From a virus (taxonomy: Duplodnaviria > Caudoviricetes), in IMG/VR virus record IMGVR_UViG_3300032116_020335, positions 1 to 52,221 of that record: a stretch of DNA of 52,221 bases; one strand, 5' to 3'. The position numbers were made by a program, and so were the translations under genes. Positions 9,444 to 26,389 of this stretch are shown piece by piece. Under the pieces are notes generated by a model that was not told the DNA's origin, made no database searches, and saw only the letters and a program-made list of their open reading frames with translations. Position 1 is the first letter of the stretch, and each line of letters begins with the position of its first letter.

Positions 9444-12400
9444 TTAGTCGTTTGGTATGAATGTTATTTGATTAACTTCATGGTATGTTACACCTGCTCT
9501 ATTTATTGCATATGCTCTAGCATAGATATAATTACCAAGTTCATTATTAAAATCAACATTATACATATCACTACCTATTATATTACCAAATATATTACCA
9601 AAATTTAGTTTATTATCAGCAATTGTTGGATTTGGTGTCAATGACCAAACAATACCAAACTCTGTAACTTTTGAACTACCTGAACTTGCTAATGTAACAT
9701 AAAAATCAACTGTACCGTTTCCATTTACCGTATAATCATCTAAATAGACAGTTGGTTTAAATCCAACATAACTTTTTATTTCTATTGTTGTATTAAATAA
9801 TAAACCATCATAATTATAATTATTTACCCCATCATATGCACTAGCCGAAAGATAAACAAAATCATCAATTTTACTTTCTGAATAAATAGCTGAAAAAAGT
9901 GATAGAGATACAAACGGATAAAAATCATAAGGTGTTAATTGTGAAGTAACAATAGATGTTTTTTCTCTTGGGAATGTTTGATTTCCATTACTAAAATATG
10001 CACCATATGCACCTTCTCCACCAAATGGATTAAGAACCCAAACAATTTCATCATCAAAACTATTTTCTAAAACATTAACAACTAATGTTGGTGTTTCTAC
10101 TGTCAATTGAGAACCATTTGACCAATTTGTTGGATATCTTCCTGTTGCTACAAAATCAGTATTTGAATTTGTAGTTGCTCCAACATTTAAGAAATCATCA
10201 CCTGCTACATAATTTAGTATCTTATAAGTTTCTCCAACGATTAATCCATTAAGTTGGTTAGATGTTATATCTTGTGGTGGTATATGTGTTAGTAATGCTC
10301 TATATGTTCTATAACCATTATCAAATCTGCTTTCTACATTTACACTATTTTCATTAATGTAGAAAATATCACTTCTATTTTCATATGTACCATTACCAAC
10401 AACCATTAATGATTCAGTATTTGCTGATTTATTAAATTTACCTGATGCATGTTGATAGTCCTTTGTTGTTATTGTTCCATAACCTTCAGCATGTGAATAA
10501 TTACCCAATGCTAGTGTACCACTACCTTCTGTATGTGAACCTGTACCAAGAGCCTGTGTTGCTATACCTTCAGCATGTGATGCATCACCAATTGAGTAAG
10601 TAGCACCTCTTGGATTAATATTGTATGGTAAATAAATATAACAAGAACCATTCAATGTTAAATTATCAAATACTACGGTTGTATATCCTGCCTCAAATGT
10701 TGATGCTGATATTGTAGCTATAACTCCACCATAAGTATTACTATCCTGTCTATCATCAAATATGATTGGACTACTAGCTACGAAAACATCTGTTAAGTCT
10801 TGCGTTTCATTTTCATTTAATACTGCAATACCATTTACTACATTTGTACTTCTATATCCTCTAGCACCTGCTAAGTTCATTATACCTTCTGTATGTGATG
10901 CCATACCAGCTGCAATAGCACCACCCATACCTGTAGAACCTTCAGAGTGTGAATAATCACCAATTGCTTGTGTATTATAACCTTCTGAATGTGACCCTGT
11001 ACCAATTGCTCCTGTACTATCGCCTTCAGCATGTGAATTTGAACCAAATGTTGTTGTTCTATATCCTTCAGCATGTGAATTTGAACCAAATGTTTGTGTT
11101 TCACTACCTTCAGCGTGTGATGCAAATCCAAATCTTTCATAATTATTTCCATCAGGCCATGTTTGCTCATTTTCTATTCTAGAAAATCTTGGATTATAAA
11201 TATAAATATCTTGACCAATTAAATATGATGAAAATGCTGAACCTGCTGTTATGTAGGTATATGTACCATCAAAACCTAGTGTTGTTGACCCTAAATTATT
11301 ATATTCAATAGTTGTTTGAGTTTTATAATAGTATTTTAAATCACCAGGATTAAGATTGTAAAAAGATATTGAATTTGTTAAATCACCAAAACCACTATCT
11401 AATCTTAAAGTTGTTGCATCAACTACATTCGCAGGAATTGCATTTATACCTGCTTTTGTATTTTCACCTTCAGCATGTGAATTATCATGATTAGCTTGTG
11501 TTTCAGAACCTTCAGCATGTGATGCAGTACCTGCTGCTTGTGTTATTACACCTTCAGCATGTGAATGATTACCTAATGCAGCAGTTTTTCTACCTTCAGA
11601 ATGTGATGATGTTCCGATTGCAACTGTAAAAGAACCTTCTGAATGACTGTAATAATAATTACTAGTATCTAATCTAAAAAGTACTCCAATATCGCTTAAA
11701 CCACCATTTAAACCACAAAATACATTATTACTAATATTTGGTGCATATTGTAATGTCATTGTTTTAGCGGTATAATCTATAGATTTAATGTATGTTCTTG
11801 CCAATTGATTATAATTACCACCTGCACTTCTAACATAAGCAACAAGATTACCTACATTAAAGTTTGCAGTATTTGTAACTGTAATAGTTTCAGTATTTTC
11901 ATCAACTGCTGTTATATAAGTATAGTAAGTTGGTGTAAATGTTGCACTACCTTCAGCATGTGAACCTTCACCTAAAGCAAATGTGTCATAACCTTCGGCA
12001 TGTGATGCATAACCATGTGCCTCTGAATAATATCCTTCAGAATGTGATGCATAATTATATGCTTTTGTGTTACCACCTTCAGAATGTGTTGCAAATCCAT
12101 CTGAAAATGTTGAATCACCTTCAGCATGTGAAAATCCTCCTAATGCCATCGTTCCTATACCTTCAACATGTGAACCTTCACCTAAAGAAATTGTATAATT
12201 ACCTTCAGAATGTGAACTCTCACCTCCTGCAATAGTAAAGTATCCTTCAGAATGTTGATAACTCTTGTATGGAATTATATGAGTTGATTCAAGTGAAACG
12301 CAAGCAATTAATGCTTCACTTGTATTTATACCAGTATTTTGAAGATATATTGTATATGTCTGTGCTGATGGAATGTATGTTGTTGATGAAATAGAAAAAT

Positions 12401-13601
12401 AATCATATCCGTAATTATCTTGATACTGTGAATCATCAAATATAATATAATTTCTATTATCTTTTTCTATAATCAGAAACTCATTTTGTTGATTTAGTCC
12501 AATATTTTCTATGGTGATTACACCATCAATAATGCTTGAACTATAAAATGCTCTTAAACCTGTTTGAGTATATCCACCTTCAGCATGTGAATAATCACTA
12601 AGTGCATTTACACTTACTCCTTCAGCAGTAGAATATGCACCTACTGTGCTTGAACCAAAACCTTCAGTAAAATAATAAGTTGCTTCTAAAGATGGTGAAA
12701 AAACAAATGTTGTTTTATCAGCATCAATATCATAAGTTATATCCGTTATAGTTGGTAAATCATAATAGTATTTATTTAAGTTAAAAGAATCAGGTCCATC
12801 TCCAATATAAAAACTAGTTGTTTGAATTGGTAATTCAAATATTAAACTTGAATAATCACCATTTACTGTAATTGTTGATGTTGTAGATGAAAATACATTT
12901 GAAGTTAAAGATTGATTATTATCTGTATAATCAATATAAAAAAATTGAAAATAATTAACAGACCCTGAGCCTGTAATATTTACTGCTCTATCTGTATATA
13001 CTGCAAAGTCAGAAGATTGATTAAAACTATTACCTGTAAATGTACTTGTTCCACCGCTTGATGGTCCAAATGACCAATTAAGATAATGTCTTTCATAAAC
13101 AGGTAATGTTTGTCCTGATGGTGGACCTGCAATAACTTTACCATTAATTTGCCAACCATTTCCAATACCAAACATTTCAGAAATCTGAATTGTTGCACTA
13201 TTTGATGCATTACCTGCATATGTTATTTGTAATAAACCATTTTTAGGGGTTTGTTGTAATGCAGCCCACCAAACATCTCTACTTGTAGATGATGTATCAC
13301 CATTATTTACTTTAATTTTTAATAAGTTATTTGGATTTAATGGGTTATTAGTTAATCCTGAAAATAGTTCAATATTAAAATAATTATCAGTAGGTGAAGG
13401 TTTATTACCAGGTGATATTGGTTCTGATAATAGCCAAATATAACCTTGATTTGAACTTGTTCCACCACTATTTATTACTGTAGTATCGCCTACATAAATT
13501 GTTGTTGCACAAAGTACACCAATAAATTTTACATCACTATTAATTTCTAGACTTTTTTCGGGTACGGTTGATTCAATTGCATCTACTTTTATTAAACTCA
13601 T
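9444..13601 (-). CDS. YadA-like (SHAEG-repeat) trimeric adhesin / tail fibre with inserted domains and a C-terminal FN3-like domain (1385 aa)
   Basis: Many 14-aa G..SH(A/S)EG..T.A repeats, followed by a neck-like LMVVGNG...RSDIF. The C-terminal FGIVWS...NPTI...YARAYAINRAG.TY is FN3-like. Confidence 0.7.
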   Translation of the reverse strand: MSLIKVDAIESTVPEKSLEINSDVKFIGVLCATTIYVGDTTVINSGGTSSNQGYIWLLSEPISPGNKPSPTDNYFNIELFSGLTNNPLNPNNLLKIKVNNGDTSSTSRDVWWAALQQTPKNGLLQITYAGNASNSATIQISEMFGIGNGWQINGKVIAGPPSGQTLPVYERHYLNWSFGPSSGGTSTFTGNSFNQSSDFAVYTDRAVNITGSGSVNYFQFFYIDYTDNNQSLTSNVFSSTTSTITVNGDYSSLIFELPIQTTSFYIGDGPDSFNLNKYYYDLPTITDITYDIDADKTTFVFSPSLEATYYFTEGFGSSTVGAYSTAEGVSVNALSDYSHAEGGYTQTGLRAFYSSSIIDGVITIENIGLNQQNEFLIIEKDNRNYIIFDDSQYQDNYGYDYFSISSTTYIPSAQTYTIYLQNTGINTSEALIACVSLESTHIIPYKSYQHSEGYFTIAGGESSHSEGNYTISLGEGSHVEGIGTMALGGFSHAEGDSTFSDGFATHSEGGNTKAYNYASHSEGYYSEAHGYASHAEGYDTFALGEGSHAEGSATFTPTYYTYITAVDENTETITVTNTANFNVGNLVAYVRSAGGNYNQLARTYIKSIDYTAKTMTLQYAPNISNNVFCGLNGGLSDIGVLFRLDTSNYYYSHSEGSFTVAIGTSSHSEGRKTAALGNHSHAEGVITQAAGTASHAEGSETQANHDNSHAEGENTKAGINAIPANVVDATTLRLDSGFGDLTNSISFYNLNPGDLKYYYKTQTTIEYNNLGSTTLGFDGTYTYITAGSAFSSYLIGQDIYIYNPRFSRIENEQTWPDGNNYERFGFASHAEGSETQTFGSNSHAEGYRTTTFGSNSHAEGDSTGAIGTGSHSEGYNTQAIGDYSHSEGSTGMGGAIAAGMASHTEGIMNLAGARGYRSTNVVNGIAVLNENETQDLTDVFVASSPIIFDDRQDSNTYGGVIATISASTFEAGYTTVVFDNLTLNGSCYIYLPYNINPRGATYSIGDASHAEGIATQALGTGSHTEGSGTLALGNYSHAEGYGTITTKDYQHASGKFNKSANTESLMVVGNGTYENRSDIFYINENSVNVESRFDNGYRTYRALLTHIPPQDITSNQLNGLIVGETYKILNYVAGDDFLNVGATTNSNTDFVATGRYPTNWSNGSQLTVETPTLVVNVLENSFDDEIVWVLNPFGGEGAYGAYFSNGNQTFPREKTSIVTSQLTPYDFYPFVSLSLFSAIYSESKIDDFVYLSASAYDGVNNYNYDGLLFNTTIEIKSYVGFKPTVYLDDYTVNGNGTVDFYVTLASSGSSKVTEFGIVWSLTPNPTIADNKLNFGNIFGNIIGSDMYNVDFNNELGNYIYARAYAINRAGVTYHEVNQITFIPND

Positions 13602-13636
13602 CTTTTTTTCTTTAAATAGTTATCGTATTGTTAAAA

Positions 13637-15931
13637 TTATGAATAAACTCTAATTTCTACAGGTACTCTTATTAGACCGCTAACACCACCACTATTAACA
13701 TCAGGTACTGGTGGATTTTCTATTATCAATCTACCTAAATCATATTTTGCAAACGTAACAGCACTAGTGTTAGTAATCCAACCTTTAGTCATATAAAACC
13801 CATCTTCTACATAACTTGTTTGCTGTTGTGTTTCTTCACCATTACCAACAAAAAATAAGGTTTTACCAACTGTTAAAATAGGTGAGCTAAATGAACCACG
13901 AATATAATATGGATTAGACATAATACTTGTAGTTGACCAAGTTGGTTCAATACCTAATTCATTTTGTAATACATTTACTGTTACAGCTGATGTTGTACTT
14001 GTATATGAAATTAAAGCCGTATATGAACTATATAATTTATTTGAAGTAACAACATTGCCTTGACTATCAACAGCCAATGGGTATAAGGTTGTTCCTGTTG
14101 GTACTGTTTTAATATTTAATTTATCAACATATACCGTATTTGCTGAATATCCAGTTATTGATGAACCTAGTACTATGGTATTTGTATCATATGCAGTACT
14201 ACCACTACCATGTACGAAACTATAATTTCCTAATGCAATACTATTAATTCCACCTGCATGTGAACTTGTGCCACTAGCTATTGTTGACCAACCTTCAGCA
14301 TGTGAATAATCACCATATGTTATTGTTCCAAATCCTTCAGCATGTGATGATTGACCAAATGCTTGAGAATATTCACCTTCGGCATGTGATACTATACCAT
14401 TTGCTATTGTTAAATAACCTTCAGCATGTGAATAATTACCATTTGTTTTTGTTTGAAATCCTTCAGCGTGTGAACCATAACCATTTGCTCTTGTTAAATG
14501 TCCTTCAGCATGTGAAGTATTACCACTTGCTATTGTTAAATTACCTTCAGCATGTGAACTTTGACCAAATGTAACACAACCTTCACCTTCTGCATGTGAA
14601 GAAGTACCACTTACTATTGTTTTAAAACCTTCAGAATGTGAATATTGTGTTACTGCTGTTGTTTGATAACCTTCAGCATGTGAATAATCACCATATGTTA
14701 TTGTTTGATAACCTTCAGCATGTGAACTTGTGCCACTAGCTATTGTTGACCAACCTTCAGCATGTGAATAATTACCATATGTTATTGCACTTAAACCTTC
14801 AGTATGTGACCAATTACCAACCGATAATGTATCATAACCTTCAGCATGTGAATTAATACCATTTGCTGTTGACTCATACCCTTCGGCATGTGAACCTGAA
14901 CCATTTGCTGTTGACTTATATCCCTCGGCATGTGATGCTATACCTACTGCTGTTGTTTGATAACCTTCGGCATGTGATACTATATCATTTGCTGTTGTTT
15001 GATAACCTTCGGCATGTGAATAATTACCACTTGCTATTGTTCCTGTACCTTCAGCGTGTGAATAATTACCACTTGCTATTGTTCCTATACCTTCAGCGTG
15101 TGAATATAGCCCTGTTGTTAACGTATAATAACCTTCAGCATGTGAAGAAGTACCTGATGCTATTGTAAATTCACCTTCAGAATGTGAGTATTGTGTTACT
15201 GCTGTTGTTTGATAACCTTCAGCATGTGAATAATCACCATATGTTCTTGTTTGATAACCTTCAGCATGTGATGCTTCCCCATTTGCTATTGTTAAATAAC
15301 CTTCAGAATGTGAATATGGACTATTTGTTTGTGTACCCAAACCTTCAGCATGTGATGAATAACCAAGAGAAATTGTATTAAATCCTTCAGCATGTGAAGA
15401 ATTACCTAATGATTGAGAATATTGACCTTCGGCATGGGAATATTGTCCATTTGCTTGTGTGCGTATTCCTTCGGAGTGTGAATATGATGTTGATGCTGTT
15501 GTTAACCATCCTTCTGCGTGTGATGCATAACCAATTGCTTTTGTACTTTCACCTTCGGCATGTGCATAATATGTTGTTGCCGATGTTCTGTAACCTTCAG
15601 AATGTGAAGCAAGACCACTTGCTATTGTTTCTTGACCTTCAGCATGTGAATAATTACCACTTGCTATTGTTCTATAACCTTCAGCATGTGAATAATTACC
15701 ATTAGTTGTTGCTGTTGTCTGTAAACCTTCAGCATGTGAACCTTCACCACAGGCTTTTGTTTGGTAACCAATTTCTACACCACTTGGATTACAGGGTGGA
15801 CCTGCTGTTGTGCTATAAATACCTGTTTCACCGATTGTTACTCCTGATGCTCCACCTAATTGTAGATTGCTGTCAATTTGTATTTGATTTGTTGAAAATG
15901 ATTCTATTGAATTTACTCTTATAGTACCCAT
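13637..15931 (-). CDS. YadA-like head-repeat adhesin / tail fibre (764 aa)
   Basis: About 36 tandem 14-aa SHAEG repeats. The C-terminal domain (Y..YTAL...VLQNELG...VEIRVY) is related to a domain in 9444..13601. Confidence 0.75.
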   Translation of the reverse strand: MGTIRVNSIESFSTNQIQIDSNLQLGGASGVTIGETGIYSTTAGPPCNPSGVEIGYQTKACGEGSHAEGLQTTATTNGNYSHAEGYRTIASGNYSHAEGQETIASGLASHSEGYRTSATTYYAHAEGESTKAIGYASHAEGWLTTASTSYSHSEGIRTQANGQYSHAEGQYSQSLGNSSHAEGFNTISLGYSSHAEGLGTQTNSPYSHSEGYLTIANGEASHAEGYQTRTYGDYSHAEGYQTTAVTQYSHSEGEFTIASGTSSHAEGYYTLTTGLYSHAEGIGTIASGNYSHAEGTGTIASGNYSHAEGYQTTANDIVSHAEGYQTTAVGIASHAEGYKSTANGSGSHAEGYESTANGINSHAEGYDTLSVGNWSHTEGLSAITYGNYSHAEGWSTIASGTSSHAEGYQTITYGDYSHAEGYQTTAVTQYSHSEGFKTIVSGTSSHAEGEGCVTFGQSSHAEGNLTIASGNTSHAEGHLTRANGYGSHAEGFQTKTNGNYSHAEGYLTIANGIVSHAEGEYSQAFGQSSHAEGFGTITYGDYSHAEGWSTIASGTSSHAGGINSIALGNYSFVHGSGSTAYDTNTIVLGSSITGYSANTVYVDKLNIKTVPTGTTLYPLAVDSQGNVVTSNKLYSSYTALISYTSTTSAVTVNVLQNELGIEPTWSTTSIMSNPYYIRGSFSSPILTVGKTLFFVGNGEETQQQTSYVEDGFYMTKGWITNTSAVTFAKYDLGRLIIENPPVPDVNSGGVSGLIRVPVEIRVYS
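14220..15750 (-). repeat. Coding tandem repeat of ~36 x 42 bp (plus-strand core ccttcagcatgtga) encoding SHAEG beta-roll repeats
   Basis: Counted by hand in the translation. The period is 42 bp and in frame, with one 15-aa unit near the start. Confidence 0.9.
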
Positions 15932-15934
15932 ATT

Positions 15935-16237
15935 TTATAGTATAGTTAAAACTGAATTTTCAGGTATACTTATTGTGAAACCTGAAGGTAATGTTATTAT
16001 TGGTCCAATCATTATTGCATTTGAATTTTGTGGTATTTGAATGTTTTCTGAAATAGTTTGAGGATTACTATAAAAATTAGCTGAGACATTCATAAATGGT
16101 TCAGCAGTTGCTAAAGTATTTGCTAAATTATCAACTGTAACATTATATGTAGAATTACCTTCTTGTGCAGGTAATGCTGTATTTAATGTTGGTGTAATTA
16201 AATTGGGTAATTGTGTAATGGTTTTTCCTGTTATCAT
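15935..16237 (-). CDS. Small tail-fibre-associated protein (100 aa)
   Basis: N-terminal KTITQLP..T and C-terminal N.QTISENI.IP...NA..IGP.ITLPSG.TI.IP....LTIL are motifs typical of small phage fibre proteins. Confidence 0.55.
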   Translation of the reverse strand: MITGKTITQLPNLITPTLNTALPAQEGNSTYNVTVDNLANTLATAEPFMNVSANFYSNPQTISENIQIPQNSNAIMIGPIITLPSGFTISIPENSVLTIL

Positions 16238-16238
16238 T

Positions 16239-16766
16239 TTATGTAAATTTTAAGTATTGATTTTCACCAAGTTTTATATATCCATTAGATAATCCTGTTA
16301 GGATTGCATCGTAAATATCTACTTCAATTGGTGGAAGTGGTGGTTGTGGTGCATTTGATTGAATCATTGTTGTTGTTTTTGTAAAAGATGGTAAGATTTC
16401 AATATCAAGTTTATAATTTAATGGAACAACGATAGTCTTTTGTTCTCCATATTTTTCAAAAATAATTTTAAACTCACCTCTAAACTTTCCAGCTTTAGCT
16501 GTATCTTTTTTACTAAATTTATATTGAATTGTAAAGTCAATAATTTCTCTACAAGTATCTTCTTGATTTAATTGTAGATTATTTTTTGTTTCGATATTTA
16601 CAAAACCACTTTTATCATGTATTTTATAATAACCTCTTTCATCAGTCATTGAAAACAATACAGTAGCATTTTGAATAATATTAATTAATTCAGAAAAATT
16701 CCTACCTTTATAGGGTCTTAACTCTAATATTGGTAGTTCGCTATTTTGTTTTATTGAAAAATCCAT
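16239..16766 (-). CDS. BppU-like baseplate adaptor protein (175 aa); paralog of 8680..9129
   Basis: Near-collinear motifs with 8680..9129: IKQN..LPILE, IQNATV.FSM, LNQE..CRE..DFTIQYKF, GEFKI.F. Confidence 0.6.
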   Translation of the reverse strand: MDFSIKQNSELPILELRPYKGRNFSELINIIQNATVLFSMTDERGYYKIHDKSGFVNIETKNNLQLNQEDTCREIIDFTIQYKFSKKDTAKAGKFRGEFKIIFEKYGEQKTIVVPLNYKLDIEILPSFTKTTTMIQSNAPQPPLPPIEVDIYDAILTGLSNGYIKLGENQYLKFT

Positions 16767-19700
16767 TATTTTAATTTTCTAAAACCGTATCTATCAGAGA
16801 AGTAATTATAGTTCTTTTTGATTTCAGGGAAACCTAAATCAATATCATACATTCTAAGCCTTTGTATCTTTCCATAGAATGAACCATCAAAATTATCTTC
16901 AATAACAGATTTAATTCCTCTATTATATAATATTTCAGTACTAATTGTATATGAAGTTGTTCCTGTAAGGTAAACTACATCATATTCACGGAATGTAATA
17001 TCGTCAAAGTAGAAATTATAATAAGATGTTATATTTTCCGCATTTTCAAATTTAACAACAGGTGTATAAGATGTATATCCACTTATTTCATTTGGTGTTA
17101 CAAAATCAATTGATAAATAAGTCCATGTATTTGCAGAACTATTTGTATTATATGTAGTAGTAGTTAATACTTCAATTTCAGAACTTAATGGATTTATAAA
17201 ATCAAAATAAATTCCTTTTTCAGTATTTGAATAATATCCATTATCATCATAAAAATATCCCTCTAAAACATATTTCTTATTTGGTTTTACTTCTAATGCA
17301 TTTTCAAAAATTAATAAATTATTTGTTAATGAACTAAATGTTGTAGCTGTAGAAGATGAAATTGTATCTGGTATCAGATTATACTCACTAAAACTATAAT
17401 TATCAATAAAAAATTTATAATTTTCTGTTATTGCAGTAATGTTACCTGCTTTTATTACAGGTGTATAAATTGTATATGAAGATATAACTTCAGGAGTGGT
17501 AAACTCTATACTTAAATCTAACCAAGTATTTGATGAAACACTATCATTATATGTGATAGATGTTATGATAAGATTTTCACCTGATAATGAAGGTTCAAAA
17601 TCAAAATAAATACTCTTTGATTCACCACTTAAATAACTATTATCATCATAGAATTTTGTTGATAATGTATATTTTTTAGCAGGGTTAATATTTATATCTT
17701 CAAATTTAAAGATATTATCTGTAACTGATGAATATGTTAAGCCTGTGACAATATCTTGTTCATATAATTTGAAATCATCAAACCTAAAGCTATAAACTGA
17801 AGGGAAACAGTCACCAAAGTCAACTGTAGCACCTAATGTGTAGGCTGTTGAGCCTGTGATTATTGAAGGTGTTTTAATTTCAGTTCTTAATGTATACCAA
17901 GTATTAAAAGAGTCTGAAGATGTATATGCTGTTTTACCAAGAACTTCATTTTCACTATCTAAATTTAAAAAGTTTATTTCAACATATTTATATGTACCTA
18001 CAAAACTAAAGAAATCATTAAATCTTGATTCAATTATATAAACTTTACTTGGGTTTATTGGTTTAGGGTCTGTAAGTGTAAAGATTGTATTAGTTGGTGA
18101 GTTAAATGTATTACCTGTAAAATCATTATTCCTAATATTTAAAATAAATGCAGATGGATTACCAACTTCACTAAATGGTATTGCTTCTAATGTTCCATCA
18201 ACTAAATCAATGGTTATGCCTGTTGTGATACCAATTGTATGACCACTATCTTCAAATTCACCAAAATTACCATCATTTATAGTTAATGTATTAGATGTAT
18301 ATTGAGTTATCACAAGTGATGGTAAAGCAAGTCTAAGTGAACTATTTCCTGAGAAATATTGTTCTGTTGATACTTCTAATAATGCATTTATTGTTTCACT
18401 TGATACATTTTCAATTGAGGATTCAAATGTTTTTGTAATTGCACTTGAGAATACATAACTAAATCCTGTTAATGCAAGTACAGGTAGTAAATTATAATCT
18501 TCAGTATAAATTTCATCAAAATAAAACTTATAATTTTGATTTATACCTGTTGGATTATCAATAAACACATATGGTGTATAAGATGTAACACCTGTTATTT
18601 GAGTTGGTGTATTAAATTCAATCTTTAAATCATTCCAAACACCTGATGATGTTGTAGTTGTATAAGTTAAAGATGATACTACTGTATGTTCAGAATCCAA
18701 TGATGGTAAGAATCCAATATAAACACCTTTAGTTTCTCCTGTATTATAACTATTATCATCAAAGAACTTAGCACTAATAATATATTTTTTATTAACTTCA
18801 GGAGTTAAAGCTGATAATGTTAATAGTGAATTTGTTAGTGAACTGAATGTAAATGATGTAAATGGTGTTAAAGGATAATTTGTTATTGAAAAATTATCAA
18901 AATAGAATTTATAACTTGAACTTATTCCACTTTTATTATATAATTTTGCAATAGGAATATAACTTGTAGAGCCTGTTAATGCACTAGGTGTGGTAAATGA
19001 TAATGATAAATCAACCCAAGTCTGAGAAGATGTAGTTGTTGTATATGTTAATGAAGATATAATTATATTTTCAGAATCTAAACCCCCCGATAATTCTAAA
19101 ATTACACCCTTATCTTGACCAGTTAAATAACTATTATCATCATAAAACTGAGTATTTAAGAAATATTTAGTATCTGTTGTAATTGTAAATGAACTAAATT
19201 TAACTAAAACATCTGTTGTTGATGATAATGTAAATGAACTGTATGTATCAATAGTTTCATATGATAAATAATAATTATCAAAGAAGAAATTATATCCTAT
19301 ATTATTAATAGTTAATGATGTAACACTTTCGCCACTTGTTCCACCTGTAAATATAAAATTAGTTACTGATGGTTCAGTCAAATCATTTTCATAATCAATA
19401 CTAGTTGAAAATTTATATGTTGTATTACCTGTCATTGCTGATGGTGTTTTGAAAACATATGTTAATTTTGTCCAAGTATTTGCGGATGTTGTAGATGTAT
19501 AAGTTTCAGCAGATAAAATAAGAATTTCAGGGTCTAATGCAGGGATTGTATCTAAATAAACACCTCTATTTGAACCTGTCCAAGTTTGTGCAATATTTTG
19601 TGTATATGCAGAAATATTAATTACATTACCACTAGCATTTGTTCCTGTATAAGCAGTTACAAAAGTAGTTTCACTTGTAGCAGTATAATTATAAAAATAT

Positions 19701-22700
19701 CCCTCATAATAATAATATGTATTTGGTATTAATGTAACATCATTTACAAAATAGAATAAATTTTTATCAATACTAAAGAATGGTGCGTAACTATTTGGTT
19801 GTGGATATGGTGCAACTCTAAGACTTGATGAACCACTTAATACAATACCAGCATCAAAATAATATGCTGCTGTATTATTTGTGTCCATTCCATAATCTGA
19901 AAGGTAATCAAATGTACCACTATTACCATTTGTAATAACATTTCCTGTATAAACGGTAAGACCTGTTGTGTATGTAATTCCTGATGAATCACCAAATAAT
20001 TTTAATGATGTTGTACTTGAATATTGGTTGGAATATTGTTCAGTACTTGATGTTAATATTGCAGCATCAATTTCTGTTGTAAATGGTGTTATATCACCCT
20101 CAAAATCATATAATACCGTACCACCTGAAATATATTCATATATTGTTTTAGTAGATGATGTTGATGCTGTTAAAACTAAAGAACTTAAACCTGAAAAAGT
20201 TTGTGCAGTTGTTGATGTTATTACTACATCTAGAATATCTGTTGTTATACCACTAATAGAACTTTCAAAATCAATATTACTTGAACTATTAAAGAAATAA
20301 GTATAACTTGTTGAATAACCTGTTAAATATGTAACTGAAAATAGTGGTTCAAGTGGTCTTAGTTGTAAAGAATAACTACCTGAATGTGTAAATGATGTAG
20401 TTGATGTAATAATTATATCATAAACATCACTTGTAACACCTGTTATTGTATTTTCAAATGTACCATTATCGCCATTTAAAAAATAATTTGTATTTCCTGA
20501 AACTTTGTATTGTTCAAATACAAAATCATCAAAAGTAAATTTATAGTCAATTGAAATTCCTGTTGGATTTACAAATTTAATTAATGGTAAATAACTTGTA
20601 TTACCTGTTATTGCTGATGGACTTAAAAACTCTAATCTTAAATCAGTCCAAGTTTGAGTAGGTGTTGTTGTTGTATATGTTAATGAAGATATAATTATAT
20701 TTTCAGAATCTAAACCACCTGAAAATGTTAAATAAACACCTTTAGTCTCTCCTGAATTATAACTATTATCATCATAAAATTTACCTTTATATACATATTT
20801 TCTATCAGGGATAATATTTACAGGATTAAAAATTAATAAATTATCACCTGTTGCGCTAAATGTAAAACCTGATGTGGAAACAATATTTTCAATAATTGCA
20901 GGTGAATATTCAATTATTGATATATCATCAAAATAAAACTTATAGTCATTAACTAAATCAAAAATATAGTCTACTTTAATTGATGGAATATAATTTGTAA
21001 TACCTGTAAATGCTGATGGAGTTGTAAACTCTAAATATAAATCAACCCATTTTCTTTTTTCAATTGTATTATTGTATGTAATTGATGTTAATTCTGTATT
21101 TTCAGGGTCTAAACCACCTTGGAAACTTAAAAATACTGATTTGTTAGTGCCTGAAAAACTATTATCATCATAAAACTTAGCAGTATATACATATCTACAA
21201 TTTGGATTAACTGTTATACCTGTTGTACCAAATATTGGTGTTGGTAAAGTATTAATTAATAGTAAATTGTTAGTATCGGATGTATATGATATTGTGGATG
21301 CACTAGAATTACTTAATTTTAAAGTTGTTGAACATTGATAAGGATGGTCAGCACTTATTTCAACTAAACCATTAATAACTTCAGTAGTAACATTTCCAGC
21401 TTGGTAAATATCATTAATTAAATTTGTGCTTGCGCTAAAAGTTGTTGAACTAATTACCGTTGTCGGTTTAACATTCATTAATAATTTTGAATTATCCTGG
21501 GATAAAACTGTAGTAAACAAATTATAAAGAACATCAGTAGTAATACCTGTTATAGATGCTTGTAGATTATTTGTATCTCCATACTCTATTTGGCTAGTTC
21601 CACCTGTTAATTGAACATCATATTCATCAAATATAAAGTTGTCAAAATATAATTCGTAAAATCTTGTTGCTGCTGTAATATCTTCTACTTTTACAACAGG
21701 TGTATAAGCTGTTAGCCCTGTAATAACTTGTGGAGTTTGAAATTCTAAACTCAAATCAATCCAAGTTTGTGGTAAATCTTCTGTTGTTAAATATGTAGAT
21801 GCTGTTATTACGGTAATTTCAGAATCTAACCCTTCTAAAAATCCAAGATAAATGTCATTAATATAACAATTAAAACTATCATGGTCATATATTTTAGCAG
21901 AATATATATATCTTTTATTTGGTTGTATTGAAATTGGTTGTGTAAACTTCAATAAATTATTAGTTATTGAACTAAATGTTGATGCTGTGTAGTCATTGTA
22001 AGTTAATAACAATGAACCACTTCCTGAATAAACTTCTGTTGAACTGCTTAATAATAAGCTATTTACGACATCTGTACTTACATTATTAATAGCTGTTTCA
22101 AAAGTACCAAAATCACCATCGTTGAATAGTGTTTGTCCTGTTACTAATGTATAACTATATCCGCTTAAATTTTCAATACTATAACCACTTTGATAAATAA
22201 ATTCTCTACCTGTAATAATATTTTCGGTTACAGTTGCTGATGAAAATGCATCAACATAAGAGTGTTTTAATCCCCAAGTTCCACCACCCCAATTTATTGT
22301 GAATGGTATACCTATTTGTTTATCTGCGTCAATACTTAAAGGTCTTAACCAAAAGAATTCTTCAGTATTATCAACTTCATGAAATAATTTACCGTTTACA
22401 AAGATTTTAAAGAAACCATCTCTTCTTGGAACACAATCAATTAAATTATCACCTTCATAATCTTTGATTTTTCTACAATATCTAAATGTTGTAACAATAT
22501 TTGTCCAACCTGTAGTTTCTATTGGATTATCAGTTTTATATTCAGCAGTAAAGCCAGATGTAATTAAATATCTTAATGATATTGTCTTATCATTATTAAA
22601 TTTTAAACCTGCTGCATTATATTCAACATCGTTAAAATAATTATTTATATCATAACTAATTTTTGATGTATCATCATTTGCACCTGAAAATGCAATGTTA

Positions 22701-23215
22701 AACTTATTTTCAGATTTAGCACCTAAATATAAAAAGAAGCCATCTGTAAATGATTGTATATTATCAAATGTATCTTGGTCAATATATAACCAAGTATCTA
22801 TTGTAAAACCATTATCAGTTCTATATTTTGAAAGTTGGTAGTATTTATCATGTAATTTAAAATATGTACTTAAATAACCACCCGATAAAGCAAAAGAATT
22901 TCCTTCATCGCCTGTATTTAATGACACTTGTGGAAATGTTGTATTCCCTTCCGAATCATTATAACCTAATCTTTGAAGGATTAAGTTTCTATCTCTTTTT
23001 GTAAAAGTTTTTGTTTGTGTTAAAGATGTTGCAAGACCAAAATCGTACATTGTTTGACCATATCCTGTTAAAGTCAGGTCGGACAAAATATAATTTTCCC
23101 AAAATGTTAAACTAGTTACAGAAAATCCTGCATTATTGTCAAATGACTTTATATTTGAAATATCAAAATCAAATATAATGTTATCTTTGGTAAGTCCTGT
23201 ATTATTGAATATCAT
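16766..23215 (-). CDS. Giant virion protein (2149 aa): LamG/concanavalin-like domain interrupted by nine CBM-like jelly-roll modules
   Basis: LamG N-part (FTIDTWLY...WTNIVTTF...KIFVNGKL...WGGG) and LamG C-part (GSFYGKIQRLRMYD..L...EIKKNY) flank repeats of Y....KFYDDNS...LDSE...TW.DL...F.TP...YKFYFDD. Confidence 0.7.
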   Translation of the reverse strand: MIFNNTGLTKDNIIFDFDISNIKSFDNNAGFSVTSLTFWENYILSDLTLTGYGQTMYDFGLATSLTQTKTFTKRDRNLILQRLGYNDSEGNTTFPQVSLNTGDEGNSFALSGGYLSTYFKLHDKYYQLSKYRTDNGFTIDTWLYIDQDTFDNIQSFTDGFFLYLGAKSENKFNIAFSGANDDTSKISYDINNYFNDVEYNAAGLKFNNDKTISLRYLITSGFTAEYKTDNPIETTGWTNIVTTFRYCRKIKDYEGDNLIDCVPRRDGFFKIFVNGKLFHEVDNTEEFFWLRPLSIDADKQIGIPFTINWGGGTWGLKHSYVDAFSSATVTENIITGREFIYQSGYSIENLSGYSYTLVTGQTLFNDGDFGTFETAINNVSTDVVNSLLLSSSTEVYSGSGSLLLTYNDYTASTFSSITNNLLKFTQPISIQPNKRYIYSAKIYDHDSFNCYINDIYLGFLEGLDSEITVITASTYLTTEDLPQTWIDLSLEFQTPQVITGLTAYTPVVKVEDITAATRFYELYFDNFIFDEYDVQLTGGTSQIEYGDTNNLQASITGITTDVLYNLFTTVLSQDNSKLLMNVKPTTVISSTTFSASTNLINDIYQAGNVTTEVINGLVEISADHPYQCSTTLKLSNSSASTISYTSDTNNLLLINTLPTPIFGTTGITVNPNCRYVYTAKFYDDNSFSGTNKSVFLSFQGGLDPENTELTSITYNNTIEKRKWVDLYLEFTTPSAFTGITNYIPSIKVDYIFDLVNDYKFYFDDISIIEYSPAIIENIVSTSGFTFSATGDNLLIFNPVNIIPDRKYVYKGKFYDDNSYNSGETKGVYLTFSGGLDSENIIISSLTYTTTTPTQTWTDLRLEFLSPSAITGNTSYLPLIKFVNPTGISIDYKFTFDDFVFEQYKVSGNTNYFLNGDNGTFENTITGVTSDVYDIIITSTTSFTHSGSYSLQLRPLEPLFSVTYLTGYSTSYTYFFNSSSNIDFESSISGITTDILDVVITSTTAQTFSGLSSLVLTASTSSTKTIYEYISGGTVLYDFEGDITPFTTEIDAAILTSSTEQYSNQYSSTTSLKLFGDSSGITYTTGLTVYTGNVITNGNSGTFDYLSDYGMDTNNTAAYYFDAGIVLSGSSSLRVAPYPQPNSYAPFFSIDKNLFYFVNDVTLIPNTYYYYEGYFYNYTATSETTFVTAYTGTNASGNVINISAYTQNIAQTWTGSNRGVYLDTIPALDPEILILSAETYTSTTSANTWTKLTYVFKTPSAMTGNTTYKFSTSIDYENDLTEPSVTNFIFTGGTSGESVTSLTINNIGYNFFFDNYYLSYETIDTYSSFTLSSTTDVLVKFSSFTITTDTKYFLNTQFYDDNSYLTGQDKGVILELSGGLDSENIIISSLTYTTTTSSQTWVDLSLSFTTPSALTGSTSYIPIAKLYNKSGISSSYKFYFDNFSITNYPLTPFTSFTFSSLTNSLLTLSALTPEVNKKYIISAKFFDDNSYNTGETKGVYIGFLPSLDSEHTVVSSLTYTTTTSSGVWNDLKIEFNTPTQITGVTSYTPYVFIDNPTGINQNYKFYFDEIYTEDYNLLPVLALTGFSYVFSSAITKTFESSIENVSSETINALLEVSTEQYFSGNSSLRLALPSLVITQYTSNTLTINDGNFGEFEDSGHTIGITTGITIDLVDGTLEAIPFSEVGNPSAFILNIRNNDFTGNTFNSPTNTIFTLTDPKPINPSKVYIIESRFNDFFSFVGTYKYVEINFLNLDSENEVLGKTAYTSSDSFNTWYTLRTEIKTPSIITGSTAYTLGATVDFGDCFPSVYSFRFDDFKLYEQDIVTGLTYSSVTDNIFKFEDININPAKKYTLSTKFYDDNSYLSGESKSIYFDFEPSLSGENLIITSITYNDSVSSNTWLDLSIEFTTPEVISSYTIYTPVIKAGNITAITENYKFFIDNYSFSEYNLIPDTISSSTATTFSSLTNNLLIFENALEVKPNKKYVLEGYFYDDNGYYSNTEKGIYFDFINPLSSEIEVLTTTTYNTNSSANTWTYLSIDFVTPNEISGYTSYTPVVKFENAENITSYYNFYFDDITFREYDVVYLTGTTSYTISTEILYNRGIKSVIEDNFDGSFYGKIQRLRMYDIDLGFPEIKKNYNYFSDRYGFRKLK

Positions 23216-23268: not shown

Positions 23269-25839
23269 TTAATTTTTTAATTCTATGAAAGAATTTCCAT
23301 TTTCATCTTTATCAACCATAATAAGATAATCTGGATTAATTATATCACCATATGCATGCTCAATAATTAAGATTTTATCAATATCTTGTTTAACTTTATT
23401 CATAAGATTTATAAAGTTAATTGCATTTCTTTCAGAGAGTTTACCAAACAGTTCATCAAGTAAAAGAATGTTCGGTCTTGACCTATTATTCATAAATCTT
23501 AATGCAAGTCTAAGGCAAATACAAGCAAATACTCTTTCCATTCCTGAACCTGAAATAACATTCTGAATAATTTCAGGAGTATCTTTTTTTGACATTTGAA
23601 AAAAGAGTTCGTTATCAAAGAATACATTAAAATCAATATCTTCAGTATATCCTTGAAGATACATATTTACTTTTGGAATTAATTTTTTTAATAATGTGCT
23701 TGGAATACCTTCTCTGTGAATACAATTCTGATATTCTTCTCTGATTAACTCTTGTCTTTGTTGTTCTAAATATTTTGTAATTGTATCTTTATAGTTTTTG
23801 ATTTCATTTTCAGCAAATTCAATTTTATATTTAAAATCATTTACTTCTTTTTTTAATGATTCTTTATCATCTTTAAATTCATTTACCTTTGTTTTGTATG
23901 TATCAATTTTTGATTGAATCTTTTTATTTTCTTCAATATAAACTATATTGATATCATATCTTTTTAAGATATCATTTTTTTGAGAGATTTTTAAGTCAAT
24001 ATTTTCAATATGCATTGGAATATTATCATATTCCTGTTTGAATTTATTTCTTTTTTCAATCTCTTTAATAATTAATTCAATTTTTGTAATCTTTTCCTTT
24101 ACTTTCGTAATTGAAACACTTTCTTTTTTAATATCATCCTCAAAATTCTTTATTAATGATTTTTTACTTTCAATCATTAATTCTTTATCTTTGTTTTCTT
24201 CTTTATATTTATCAATATTTTTATTGATTGACTTAATATCTAATTCATATTTCTTTTTGAAAGTTTCTTTTTTAATATCATTCTGAATTTTTTGAATGTC
24301 TTCTTTTAATTTATCAACCTTTACCCTAATTGATGCAATTGCATCTTTATCTTTTAAACGATTACAACTTGGACAAACTTTACTGTCTTCTAATAAAGAA
24401 ATTTCTCTTTCAATTAAATCAATTTGTCTTTCTAAGGCAAGTCTATCATTATCAATTTGAGAATCAATTTTTGATAATGCTATATTATCTTTATGTATAT
24501 ACCCATTTATAACGGCAATATCATTTGTTATAATATTAATTTCTTTATTTAAGTCTTTTATTTGGTCATTTTTAGAAATTAACCAACCATTAAATGAATT
24601 TGATTTTTCCTTTAAAGAGTTATAAAGTTCTTCATCCAAAACAAACTTATTAAGTTCTTCAATTTGTTTTAAAAGGTCTTTCTGTGACCTTTTCTTTTCT
24701 TCTTTATCATCAATAAGTTTATTAATTTCAGATTTAACATTATTAATGTTAAGATTGATTAATTGGTTATCAATTGATTTTAATGTTTTAATCGTATTTT
24801 CAACATGTGTTTCCCCATTTGAAATTCTTTCATTTAGAACATTAATTTTATCTTCTCTATCAATTATATTATTTTCCCAATCTTCAATATAGACTTTTGC
24901 ATCCTCAATAAGTTGATTATATCTATCAACAGAAATATTTAAAAGACTTTCTTTTTTATATTCATTTTTCTTATATATTTTGAATACTTCAAGTTTCTTT
25001 TCAAATATATCAAGACCTGTATCTCTTAGAATTGAGTCTAAGAATTTTGCATGGTCAGTTGTAAGAATATCATTTAAAGTATCAGCATTAATTAAGGATT
25101 TTGTGATAAATTCATCAAAATCCCCAATTGAATGTTCAATTAATCTTTGAGTATTAGTTTTATCTTGTTCTGAAAGATTATTTTCATCAATAATCTCACC
25201 ATTTGAGTCTAATTTATTGAAATAAGTCTTTGTTGAACAAGAAGTGATGTCTGTATGTGTTTTATCCCATTTTCTTTCAGTCCTTCTTCTAATTGCATAG
25301 TCTTCACCATTAATTTCAATGATTAACTGAACTTCTGAATAATCTTTTTTGTTATTGTTGTTGATAAATTTATTATCTCTGTTCTTCTCTTTTTTGAGAG
25401 TATCAAAGGTAGTACCATAAAGACCATATGTAATAGAGTTTAAAATATTTGAATTATGAACTGCAATATTGTTAGCATAATATTCACCAATACCTTCAAC
25501 TTGAATATCTACTAGGTCAATAGTTGTATGTGGGCATGTTGAAATTCTAAAAATATTTTCAATTCCATCTTTAGTTTTGACTTTAATGAAAGGACATTCT
25601 TTTCCAATTTCATCAAATGATTTAAAAAGACCTAAATCTGTTCTAATAAGATGGTCTTTAGATATTGATAATCGTTTTCCTTTTTCCGTTTCTAGTGTCC
25701 AAAATTGAGAATCCTTTGATGTGATATCATAGGCAAGAATTTTTGAATACCCACATGGGGTTTCAACCTCAATATTTAATTCAGGAAGTAAATCCTTTAA
25801 AAATCTAAGATTTTCAATCTTTATTTGTTTCTCTGTCAT
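23269..25839 (-). CDS. sbcC: Split-intein C-fragment (IntC) fused to the Rad50/SbcC (gp46-like) ATPase body, which lacks the first part of its Walker A motif
   Basis: Likely start MTEKQ at ATG 25839; the ORF track starts at 25863. Intein block B (SKDH) and blocks F/G (DLVDIQVEG..EYYANNIAVHN|S) are followed by SNILNSITYGLYG, a coiled coil, zinc hook CPSC, signature SGSGMER, Walker B ILLLDE and H-loop IIEH. Confidence 0.92.
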   Translation of the reverse strand: MTEKQIKIENLRFLKDLLPELNIEVETPCGYSKILAYDITSKDSQFWTLETEKGKRLSISKDHLIRTDLGLFKSFDEIGKECPFIKVKTKDGIENIFRISTCPHTTIDLVDIQVEGIGEYYANNIAVHNSNILNSITYGLYGTTFDTLKKEKNRDNKFINNNNKKDYSEVQLIIEINGEDYAIRRRTERKWDKTHTDITSCSTKTYFNKLDSNGEIIDENNLSEQDKTNTQRLIEHSIGDFDEFITKSLINADTLNDILTTDHAKFLDSILRDTGLDIFEKKLEVFKIYKKNEYKKESLLNISVDRYNQLIEDAKVYIEDWENNIIDREDKINVLNERISNGETHVENTIKTLKSIDNQLINLNINNVKSEINKLIDDKEEKKRSQKDLLKQIEELNKFVLDEELYNSLKEKSNSFNGWLISKNDQIKDLNKEINIITNDIAVINGYIHKDNIALSKIDSQIDNDRLALERQIDLIEREISLLEDSKVCPSCNRLKDKDAIASIRVKVDKLKEDIQKIQNDIKKETFKKKYELDIKSINKNIDKYKEENKDKELMIESKKSLIKNFEDDIKKESVSITKVKEKITKIELIIKEIEKRNKFKQEYDNIPMHIENIDLKISQKNDILKRYDINIVYIEENKKIQSKIDTYKTKVNEFKDDKESLKKEVNDFKYKIEFAENEIKNYKDTITKYLEQQRQELIREEYQNCIHREGIPSTLLKKLIPKVNMYLQGYTEDIDFNVFFDNELFFQMSKKDTPEIIQNVISGSGMERVFACICLRLALRFMNNRSRPNILLLDELFGKLSERNAINFINLMNKVKQDIDKILIIEHAYGDIINPDYLIMVDKDENGNSFIELKN
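25453..25839 (-). other. IntC of an atypically split intein (~129 aa, mini-intein with no endonuclease)
   Basis: Terminal His-Asn (CAT AAT at 25458-25453) is followed by Ser+1 (TCA 25452-25450). Block B His lies in RLSISKDH. There is no N-terminal Cys1/block A. Confidence 0.9.
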
Positions 25840-26389
25840 TTTCAAGTAAAGGAAAAATTTCAATAATATTTGTCACCCTATTGTTATAATTCTCATGTTT
25901 CTTTTCAGGGTCAAAAAGAATAATTTTAGTATTTTTAAACTCTAATTCAGATAATTTTGGATTAGCAGTTAATATATAATCAAAGTTTTCATTAACATAC
26001 TCATCAAATTTATTATAAAATCTTATTTGGTCAAAATAAAAACCTGCTGAAAAGTTTGATATATAAAAAGCTGTAAGATTTCTAAATTTGTGTCCTTCTC
26101 TTGATATCATTACTGTTTTATATCCATTTTCGGATAATTCGGGATAGATTTGATTTAAATGTGCAATCAATTCTTTTGATGGTAGTGTTGATTTAGCAAA
26201 TAACTCATAGGAGTATTGAAATAAAAAATCTTCTAATTCATCATTTTCAAAATGGAATGAAAGTAGAGGGTTAAAGGGGTCTATTGGATAACCTATAGAC
26301 CTATCAGCGTATTCAATCTGATAATATTGTTCAAATTTCTTTATGAAATCTCTTAAAATCCCATTCACTTCTATTGCAAAAGTCTTCAT
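25814..26389 (-). CDS. HAD-superfamily 5'(3')-deoxyribonucleotidase-like protein with a degenerate catalytic motif
   Basis: N-terminus FAIEVNGILRDF resembles IGID(I/V)DGVL.D. C-terminus ends ...N.RV.NI.E. Confidence 0.5.
   Translation of the reverse strand: MKTFAIEVNGILRDFIKKFEQYYQIEYADRSIGYPIDPFNPLLSFHFENDELEDFLFQYSYELFAKSTLPSKELIAHLNQIYPELSENGYKTVMISREGHKFRNLTAFYISNFSAGFYFDQIRFYNKFDEYVNENFDYILTANPKLSELEFKNTKIILFDPEKKHENYNNRVTNIIEIFPLLENDRETNKD

Follow-up and report, generated by a model that had tools for sequence, protein, structure and literature searches.

SI3 of the cyanobacterial RNA polymerase beta' (rpoC2) is built of eight hybrid-motif domains with a recursion of six levels, and its relatives, for instance in E. 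coli, show a simpler linear form, as outlined in PMC13114784. A second point of reference is given by the "evolved" Dit, Tal and BppA proteins of siphophages of lactic acid bacteria, adhesion proteins in which carbohydrate-binding modules (CBMs) are inserted and which are involved in host glycan binding, according to PMC6669499, PMC7533335 and PMC10688798. The subject of the present work is a protein of 2149 amino acids (aa) encoded in a virus record of 52,221 bases (IMGVR_UViG_3300032116_020335; this whole stretch of DNA is referred to as the window). Its gene occupies positions 16766..23215 of the minus strand as one open frame, established from the list of open reading frames (ORFs) and the translation, and comprises a LamG-type host domain together with nine modules which quite probably are nested by repeated insertion, with the two parts of each module pairing within the chain.

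The module has about 175 residues: the first ~50 form a part named A, with the motifs G-x-F-E and S-G-x-x-S-L-x-L, and the remaining ~125 form a part named B. A first-pass annotation of the span 16980-22130, which corresponds to residues 362-2079 (A1 through B9), had proposed nine A and nine B parts, arranged as A B | A A B B | A A A A B B B A A B B B, and both count and order were borne out, by hidden Markov models (HMMs) for B and by profile comparison for A, with A7 weakly recognisable. An HMM made from the single sequence of B6 finds the other eight B parts with domain E-values of 5.9e-37 to 3.6e-13. The HMM of all nine copies gives nine matches (1e-41 to 1e-57, 125-177 bits), at residues 413-538, 654-777, 785-910, 1146-1326, 1329-1454, 1456-1579, 1703-1824, 1827-1950 and 1959-2085; in 50 shuffled versions of the protein, the highest score of any domain was 7.2 bits.

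As regards the A parts, leave-one-out HMMs recovered A1, A4, A5 and A8 at 21-29 bits; A6 was marginal at 5.7 bits, the same as the shuffle maximum, and A7 and A9 were not recovered by these models. With the plain HMM, A3 reached 11 bits and A2 a sub-threshold 3.1 bits (residues 553-563), under the 5.7-bit maximum of the shuffles. In a profile-profile test with hhalign, the ortholog alignment of each position was compared with the A profile built without that position, and the resulting probabilities were 98.6% for A1, 89% for A2 (E 2.2e-6), 88% for A3 (E 3.1e-6), 98.7% for A4, 97% for A5, 96.5% for A6, 30% for A7 (E 5.5e-4), 97% for A8 and 80% for A9, the two controls (the 331-361 linker and the LamG C-terminus) both remaining below 1%. 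Eight of the nine A parts are supported in this way, and A7 is weak but directly precedes B4; A2 and A3, which had been described as degenerate, are therefore real copies.

The order can be parsed as LamG[ M1, M2(M3), M4( M5(M6(M7)), M8(M9) ) ], and all the positions that follow lie on the minus strand. After the N-terminal part of the LamG (concanavalin A-like) host domain (residues 1-330, 22226..23215) comes the top-level module M1, with A1 (residues 362-412, 21980..22132) contiguous with B1 (residues 413-540, 21596..21979). M2, also at top level, would be opened by the degenerate A2 (residues 543-587, 21455..21589) and closed by its predicted partner B3 (residues 785-910, 20486..20863), and would hold M3, in which the degenerate A3 (residues 605-647, 21275..21403) is contiguous with B2 (residues 650-778, 20882..21268). 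M4, again at top level, is opened by A4 (residues 910-962, 20330..20488), whose predicted partner B9 (residues 1959-2086, 16958..17341) closes it about 1000 residues downstream. Inside M4 lies M5, formed by A5 (residues 973-1024, 20144..20299) and its predicted partner B6 (residues 1456-1582, 18470..18850); inside M5 lies M6, formed by A6 (residues 1028-1086, 19958..20134) and its predicted partner B5 (residues 1329-1454, 18854..19231). The innermost module, four modules deep, is M7, where A7 (residues 1092-1146, 19778..19942) is contiguous with B4 (residues 1147-1326, 19238..19777), a B part with two extra stretches that are absent from the other eight in the B HMM alignment. A second branch inside M4 is M8, with A8 (residues 1587-1641, 18293..18457) and its predicted partner B8 (residues 1827-1952, 17360..17737), which would enclose M9, with A9 (residues 1645-1702, 18110..18283) contiguous with B7 (residues 1703-1826, 17738..18109). 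Finally, the last strands of the LamG host domain are found at residues 2087-2149 (16769..16957). By the HMM coordinates, successive parts are joined by linkers of 0-10 residues. A random order of nine A and nine B parts would be balanced with a chance of 4862/48620 = 0.10. At the level of sequence, the arrangement is that of a nested, recursive domain insertion, in which the halves of a domain flank complete domains, over and over again.

The host domain was assigned through a relative free of inserts. P0028, a protein of 383 aa with LamG alone and zero modules, scores 31.1 bits to PF13385 (Laminin_G_3), above the cut-off of 27.6; the one-module relative P0026 scores 24.9 bits, below it, and the 2149-aa protein itself has no above-threshold Pfam match, PF13385 included. 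The latter is assigned to the LamG family on the strength of its N-part, which is 87% identical to P0028 in the top local alignment, spanning 15% of the query. The C-terminal strands follow directly after the N-part in P0028 and after the single module in P0026; the same strands lie 1750 residues away from the N-part in the window protein. The proposal that the array is located within a LamG domain, between its N-part and its last strands, is in agreement with the uninterrupted match of P0028 to PF13385. In the AlphaFold2 (AF2) model of P0014, another relative, the predicted local distance difference test (pLDDT) stays below 50 over both LamG parts. By eye, the later LamG stretch of P0028 looks closer to the short-architecture class, a pattern that suggests mosaic recombination within the gene.

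The strongest argument for insertion is provided by a natural series of relatives, obtained from searches of 5.8 billion proteins. Besides P0028, this series includes proteins of 581-629 aa with the order A B (P0026, P0029, P0037, P0038, P0040 and P0041), proteins of about 785 aa with A A B B (P0027 and P0036), proteins of about 985 aa with A A B A B B, that is, A(AB)(AB)B (P0019-P0025), and proteins of about 1185 aa with A A A B B A B B, that is, A(A(AB)B)(AB)B (P0014-P0017). The comparison with homologs of fewer inserts, which had been put forward as a check, has therefore yielded 0, 1, 2, 3 and 4 modules, and by HMM the A and B parts balance in each of the 20 short LamG-type homologs that are complete (1 without module, 6 AB, 2 AABB, 7 AABABB and 4 AAABBABB), the contig-end fragments P0018, P0030-P0033 and P0039 being left out of the count.

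Moreover, the junctions can be followed from one member to the next. P0026 has one module, whose parts adjoin; its A is 85% identical to the first A of P0019 and its B 91% identical to the last B (B3), as against 22-46% to the other parts, and in P0019 two whole modules separate the halves that are contiguous in P0026, the junction being identical. In P0026 the A part ends in '...TGTNSLLL' and the B part starts with 'TTNPQTAFTTSFTF...'; these two strings flank the insert in both P0019 and P0014, which consists of two whole modules in the former and three in the latter. In the same way, A2 of P0019 shares 79% identity with A2 of P0014, and B1 of P0019 shares 78% with B2 of P0014, where the pair is split by one further module. 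Altogether, the halves that flank inserts are 78-97% identical to contiguous halves of simpler proteins, with the same residues flanking the junction. Halves which are contiguous in one phage are thus interrupted by whole modules in another, and every time the break falls between A and B; the idea of repeated insertion into the same loop of earlier copies finds support in these relatives with 0-4 modules and exact junctions.

On these grounds, the following mechanism can be proposed. The gene product would be a large surface or adhesion protein, with the LamG domain as scaffold, and the loop just before the last LamG strands would host the array of nine modules. The module would have one permissive loop, between A and B, and would tolerate interruption after its first ~50 residues, so that whole modules could repeatedly be placed into the A|B loop of an existing module, and also side by side. 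Each interrupted module would be expected to refold from its two halves, and each daughter module would be tethered by two short linkers. Given linkers of 0-10 residues and insert ends lying together, the end of the host A and the start of the host B would be brought back to loop distance, and it is this return that would allow recursion. The outcome would be a branched tree on a LamG base, four modules deep, instead of beads on a string. Its likely function would be the multivalent binding of host-surface glycans, with the inner, distal modules diverging fastest. Conservation among the orthologs, in a small sample, is lowest in M7 (mean identity 0.49 for A7 and 0.70 for B4) and highest in M6 and M5 (0.80-0.85), as would be expected if a conserved stalk carried a variable tip at its distal end, and M7 may be the specificity-determining tip. 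Location on the virion and glycan binding are suggested by family resemblances and by the adjoining fibre-like genes, and on the glycan-adhesin function taken by itself our opinion is evenly divided.

The relationship of the module to known folds is distant. The family is very narrow: a profile of four copies finds 13 cluster representatives at E <=1e-3 among 1.84 billion. The best Pfam match is the sub-threshold one to PF22637 (CBM_4_9_1, 'BppA domain 1'), over model positions 60-144 of 148, and the most distant matches of the profile searches are bacterial CBM-like repeats, for example in an enzyme of glycoside hydrolase family 31 (GH31). When 40 contiguous modules were compared by hhalign with five of these bacterial repeats, a probability of 93.6% was obtained (E 2.1e-7), the alignment taking in module residues 64-170 only and placing them on the last ~100 of ~170 residues. 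Since B aligns only to that last portion, B alone would be without the first strands. Taken with the Pfam match above and with the Atlas and model comparisons below, B would make up most of a CBM4/22-like jelly roll, on its C-terminal side, and the first strands would be supplied by something of the size of A. In the Atlas, CBM_4_9 clusters account for 26 of the 30 named look-alikes of the module (cosine 0.94). The B5 portion of a low-confidence AF2 model matches CBM22-2 with Z 8.4 and a root-mean-square deviation of 3.0 over 113 of 161 residues, and CBM4 with Z 6.9 over 103 of 155 residues, as well as several phage receptor-binding heads; these Z values are within the range reached by unmatched models and were taken as a lead only. 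On weak evidence, the module could be a distant relative of the jelly rolls of CBM4/CBM9/CBM22 type; it is almost confined to this phage lineage.

Furthermore, the A+B unit is not restricted to LamG proteins. A complete copy is present at 49188..49733 of the minus strand (profile match E 1.7e-43), inside the 662-aa ORF 48270-50258 (-), whose product is unrelated to LamG and has neither Pfam nor PHROG match. Among 102 relatives of this ORF, the unit is carried by 19 clusters (657-662 aa, including the window's own) and is lacking in 35 clusters of 459-462 aa with 74-79% identity to the 662-aa ORF; in an alignment of five sequences it is missing as a single block, columns 154-364. The unit behaves as a cassette which is present or absent in two unrelated host proteins. 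A bolder view, which we think unlikely but worth stating, is that of a mobile protein-coding cassette that dedicated or strongly biased recombination copies into permissive loops. Apart from its own A|B loop, the targets would then be the loop in LamG and one in at least one further protein of the phage.

A trace of copying between modules is also found within the gene. A 50-bp exact duplication had been reported at 19035..19084 and 20667..20716, and it is indeed exact, one copy being in B5 and the other in B3, with the same 17 residues encoded in both. It is the longest run common to any two B parts (the next longest has 22 nucleotides), and the remainder of B3 and B5 shows 60% identity. In the orthologous gene of a related contig (L001), the longest run common to B3 and B5 has 15 nucleotides. 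The tract fits a small, lineage-specific patch of gene conversion, in accordance with the recent copying or gene conversion that had been suggested for it.

Several results lend no support to the nested architecture. Concerning detection, A7 is barely recognisable, and with plain HMM thresholds none of 13 long proteins is balanced (6-8 A against 9 B). The first-pass annotation had offered the counts of separate A and B HMMs as a check, and this check fails with plain thresholds but succeeds with profile-level detection, on which the balance of the long proteins depends. For any single step of the natural series, insertion is indistinguishable from precise deletion. The module itself remains below the CBM thresholds of Pfam (PF22637 with E 0.033 and 14.9 bits against 27; PF02018 with no match), its profiles give 0 matches to PDB sequences at E up to 10, and the A profile reaches a hhalign probability of 0.3% with the N-termini of the bacterial CBM-like repeats. 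The term "jelly-roll-like" is upheld weakly for B, by the hhalign, Atlas and low-confidence structural comparisons, but for A there is no signal. As for the models, AF2 of residues 905-2090 with 11 orthologs gave a mean pLDDT of 47.6 and a predicted template-modelling score (pTM) of 0.26, with the A runs at ~24 pLDDT and unplaced, and AF2 of P0014 (1189 aa, alignment of 16 rows) gave a mean pLDDT of 40.0, both segments being too long for such shallow alignments. Both models are poor, and therefore the physical pairing of A with B, like the closeness of the two termini of the module, is something that we infer. Foldseek of the poor AF2 model against the PDB returned long meaningless alignments only (template-modelling score <=0.11), and a two-chain prediction of A4 (905-968) with B9 (1953-2090), run without controls, scored 0.00 against a mark of 0.32 and speaks neither for nor against pairing.

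The history of the partners was also compared. By correlation of distance matrices over all 362,880 pairings, the nested one has r = 0.46, a value reached by 15,687 pairings, and when the four contiguous pairs are fixed it ranks 38 of 120. By rate covariation across orthologs, the nested sum is reached by 3,019 of the 362,880 pairings, owing mainly to the contiguous pairs; when only the five non-contiguous pairs are considered, the nested pairing ranks 31 of 120. Among these five pairs, neither test set the nested pairing apart from the others, which leaves some room for an alternative in which A and B make up one fold and the partners are not the nested ones of the same chain, either by swapping of halves between the chains of an oligomeric fibre or by pairing with non-nested partners. 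Phage fibres are commonly oligomers. On the other side, linkers of 0-10 residues favour the nearest nested partner, and the two halves of a split module have orthologs that lie side by side in simpler relatives, for which reasons we consider this alternative improbable.

Another alternative would regard A and B as independent small domains that were amplified separately, as a run of A and a run of B, with equal counts arising from the duplication of larger blocks. AF2 is in its favour insofar as the B parts were obtained as beta-rich units (pLDDT 55-80) and the A runs were unstructured, as is the lack of similarity of A to CBM N-termini. We nevertheless take it to be very improbable, in view of the joint gain and loss of A and B in two unrelated host proteins, of the 20 out of 20 complete short relatives with a balanced, nested order instead of an arbitrary one, and of a B part that would be deprived of the first strands of its fold. 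Finally, that the long array was produced by misassembly, or that the gene is decaying, has next to no probability: the gene of one related viral contig (L002) is broken within B1, but 11 full-length orthologs with 70-87% identity, 100% coverage and the same architecture (found in a search of 5.8 billion proteins) sit on different contigs of up to 243,803 bp, the frame is intact in the window and in L001, and the repeats, only ~60-65% identical in DNA, are therefore too divergent to mislead an assembler. In L002 (8001-14440), a frame change splits the ortholog into ORFs of 500 aa and 1567 aa; it could be a sequencing error or mark a broken copy. Nested insertion with pairing within the chain is thus the interpretation that we retain.

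The genomic surroundings are those of a phage. The record has a completeness of 16% by CheckV and is AT-rich, with a guanine-cytosine content of 0.22-0.36 in 2-kb windows. Matches to phage families among its genes include a DnaB-like helicase, a UvsX-like recombinase, an exonuclease and an SbcC-like nuclease, the gene of the last (23269-25863) being directly upstream of the 2149-aa gene. This SbcC-like ATPase and an SbcD-like metallophosphoesterase (31594-32931), both on the minus strand, about 6 kb apart and both matching phrog_35725, look like a split or dispersed SbcCD pair. Large fibre-like genes are placed downstream of the 2149-aa gene on the same strand. Among the ORFs on that side, the one of 764 aa at 13637-15931 (-) contains YadA-head repeats (PF05658, 66.8 bits), and its product looks like a trimeric adhesin or fibre; the one of 100 aa at 15935-16237 has a match confined to the final ~70 residues of a tail-fibre PHROG. 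The region 9444-15931 (-) encodes large neighbouring proteins of 1385 aa and 764 aa that have phrog_25468 repeats in common. The 2149-aa protein has no tblastn match among 50,697 phage records, and the helicase of the same contig has at most ~25% identity to any isolate; no cultured phage is closely related, and the source is an uncultured, AT-rich and probably jumbo phage.

Self-nested domain insertion beyond two levels is rare, and the one well-described published case that was found is an ancient, fixed feature of an RNA polymerase. Limited word-match searches of the literature, covering main texts, turned up no phage protein described as having CBM-like modules nested inside each other. 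Natural intermediates with 0, 1, 2, 3, 4 and 9 modules exist at 40-90% identity, so that one can study directly in which order events took place, which loop is permissive and how far the fold tolerates interruption. For protein engineering, the module would represent a small beta-sandwich with a loop that repeatedly accepts whole domains, and hence a possible natural scaffold on which to build multivalent binders that are branched and doubly tethered. For phage biology, the series suggests that receptor binding may be diversified by the number and arrangement of modules instead of by point mutation. If the view of a mobile cassette were true, these phages could enlarge, trim and rearrange their branched trees of glycan-binding modules within ecological times as a means of changing host range, much as targeted hypervariation systems act, but by modules.

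Compared with the systems already described, the tandem CBM arrays of glycoside hydrolases, such as CBM22-1-CBM22-2 of Xyn10C, have several jelly rolls of CBM4/22 type per chain, as the window protein may, and the best structural matches of the B part, in the low-confidence model, are 4xun_A (Z 8.4) and 4xup_A (Z 8.0); unlike the nested phage modules, those arrays are contiguous beads on a string attached to an enzyme. Among the Atlas look-alikes of P0026 are viral Laminin_G_3 clusters, one of which, with 59 members, has both CBM_4_9 and Laminin_G_3 in 97%. The window protein would resemble them in combining both domains, and differs from them in its nesting, since none is known with nested copies. 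The CBMs of evolved Dit, Tal and BppA are single-level insertions into hosts that are not CBMs. As in those proteins, modules that may be of CBM type are placed here inside other phage proteins, and the match to 'BppA domain 1' (PF22637), below threshold, points the same way; the difference lies in the nesting of CBM-like modules in one another and in a sequence similarity that stays below threshold.

The closest parallel remains SI3: in both cases, a host protein contains repeated insertions of members of one small beta domain family into other members. Fold, host protein, function and organisms are nonetheless different, SI3 belonging to transcription and the present array to a phage LamG protein with putative CBM-like jelly rolls. 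Unlike SI3, the phage protein mixes nesting with tandem placement and branching. Moreover, intermediates with 0-4 modules coexist at about 40-90% identity, and the process therefore looks recent and ongoing.

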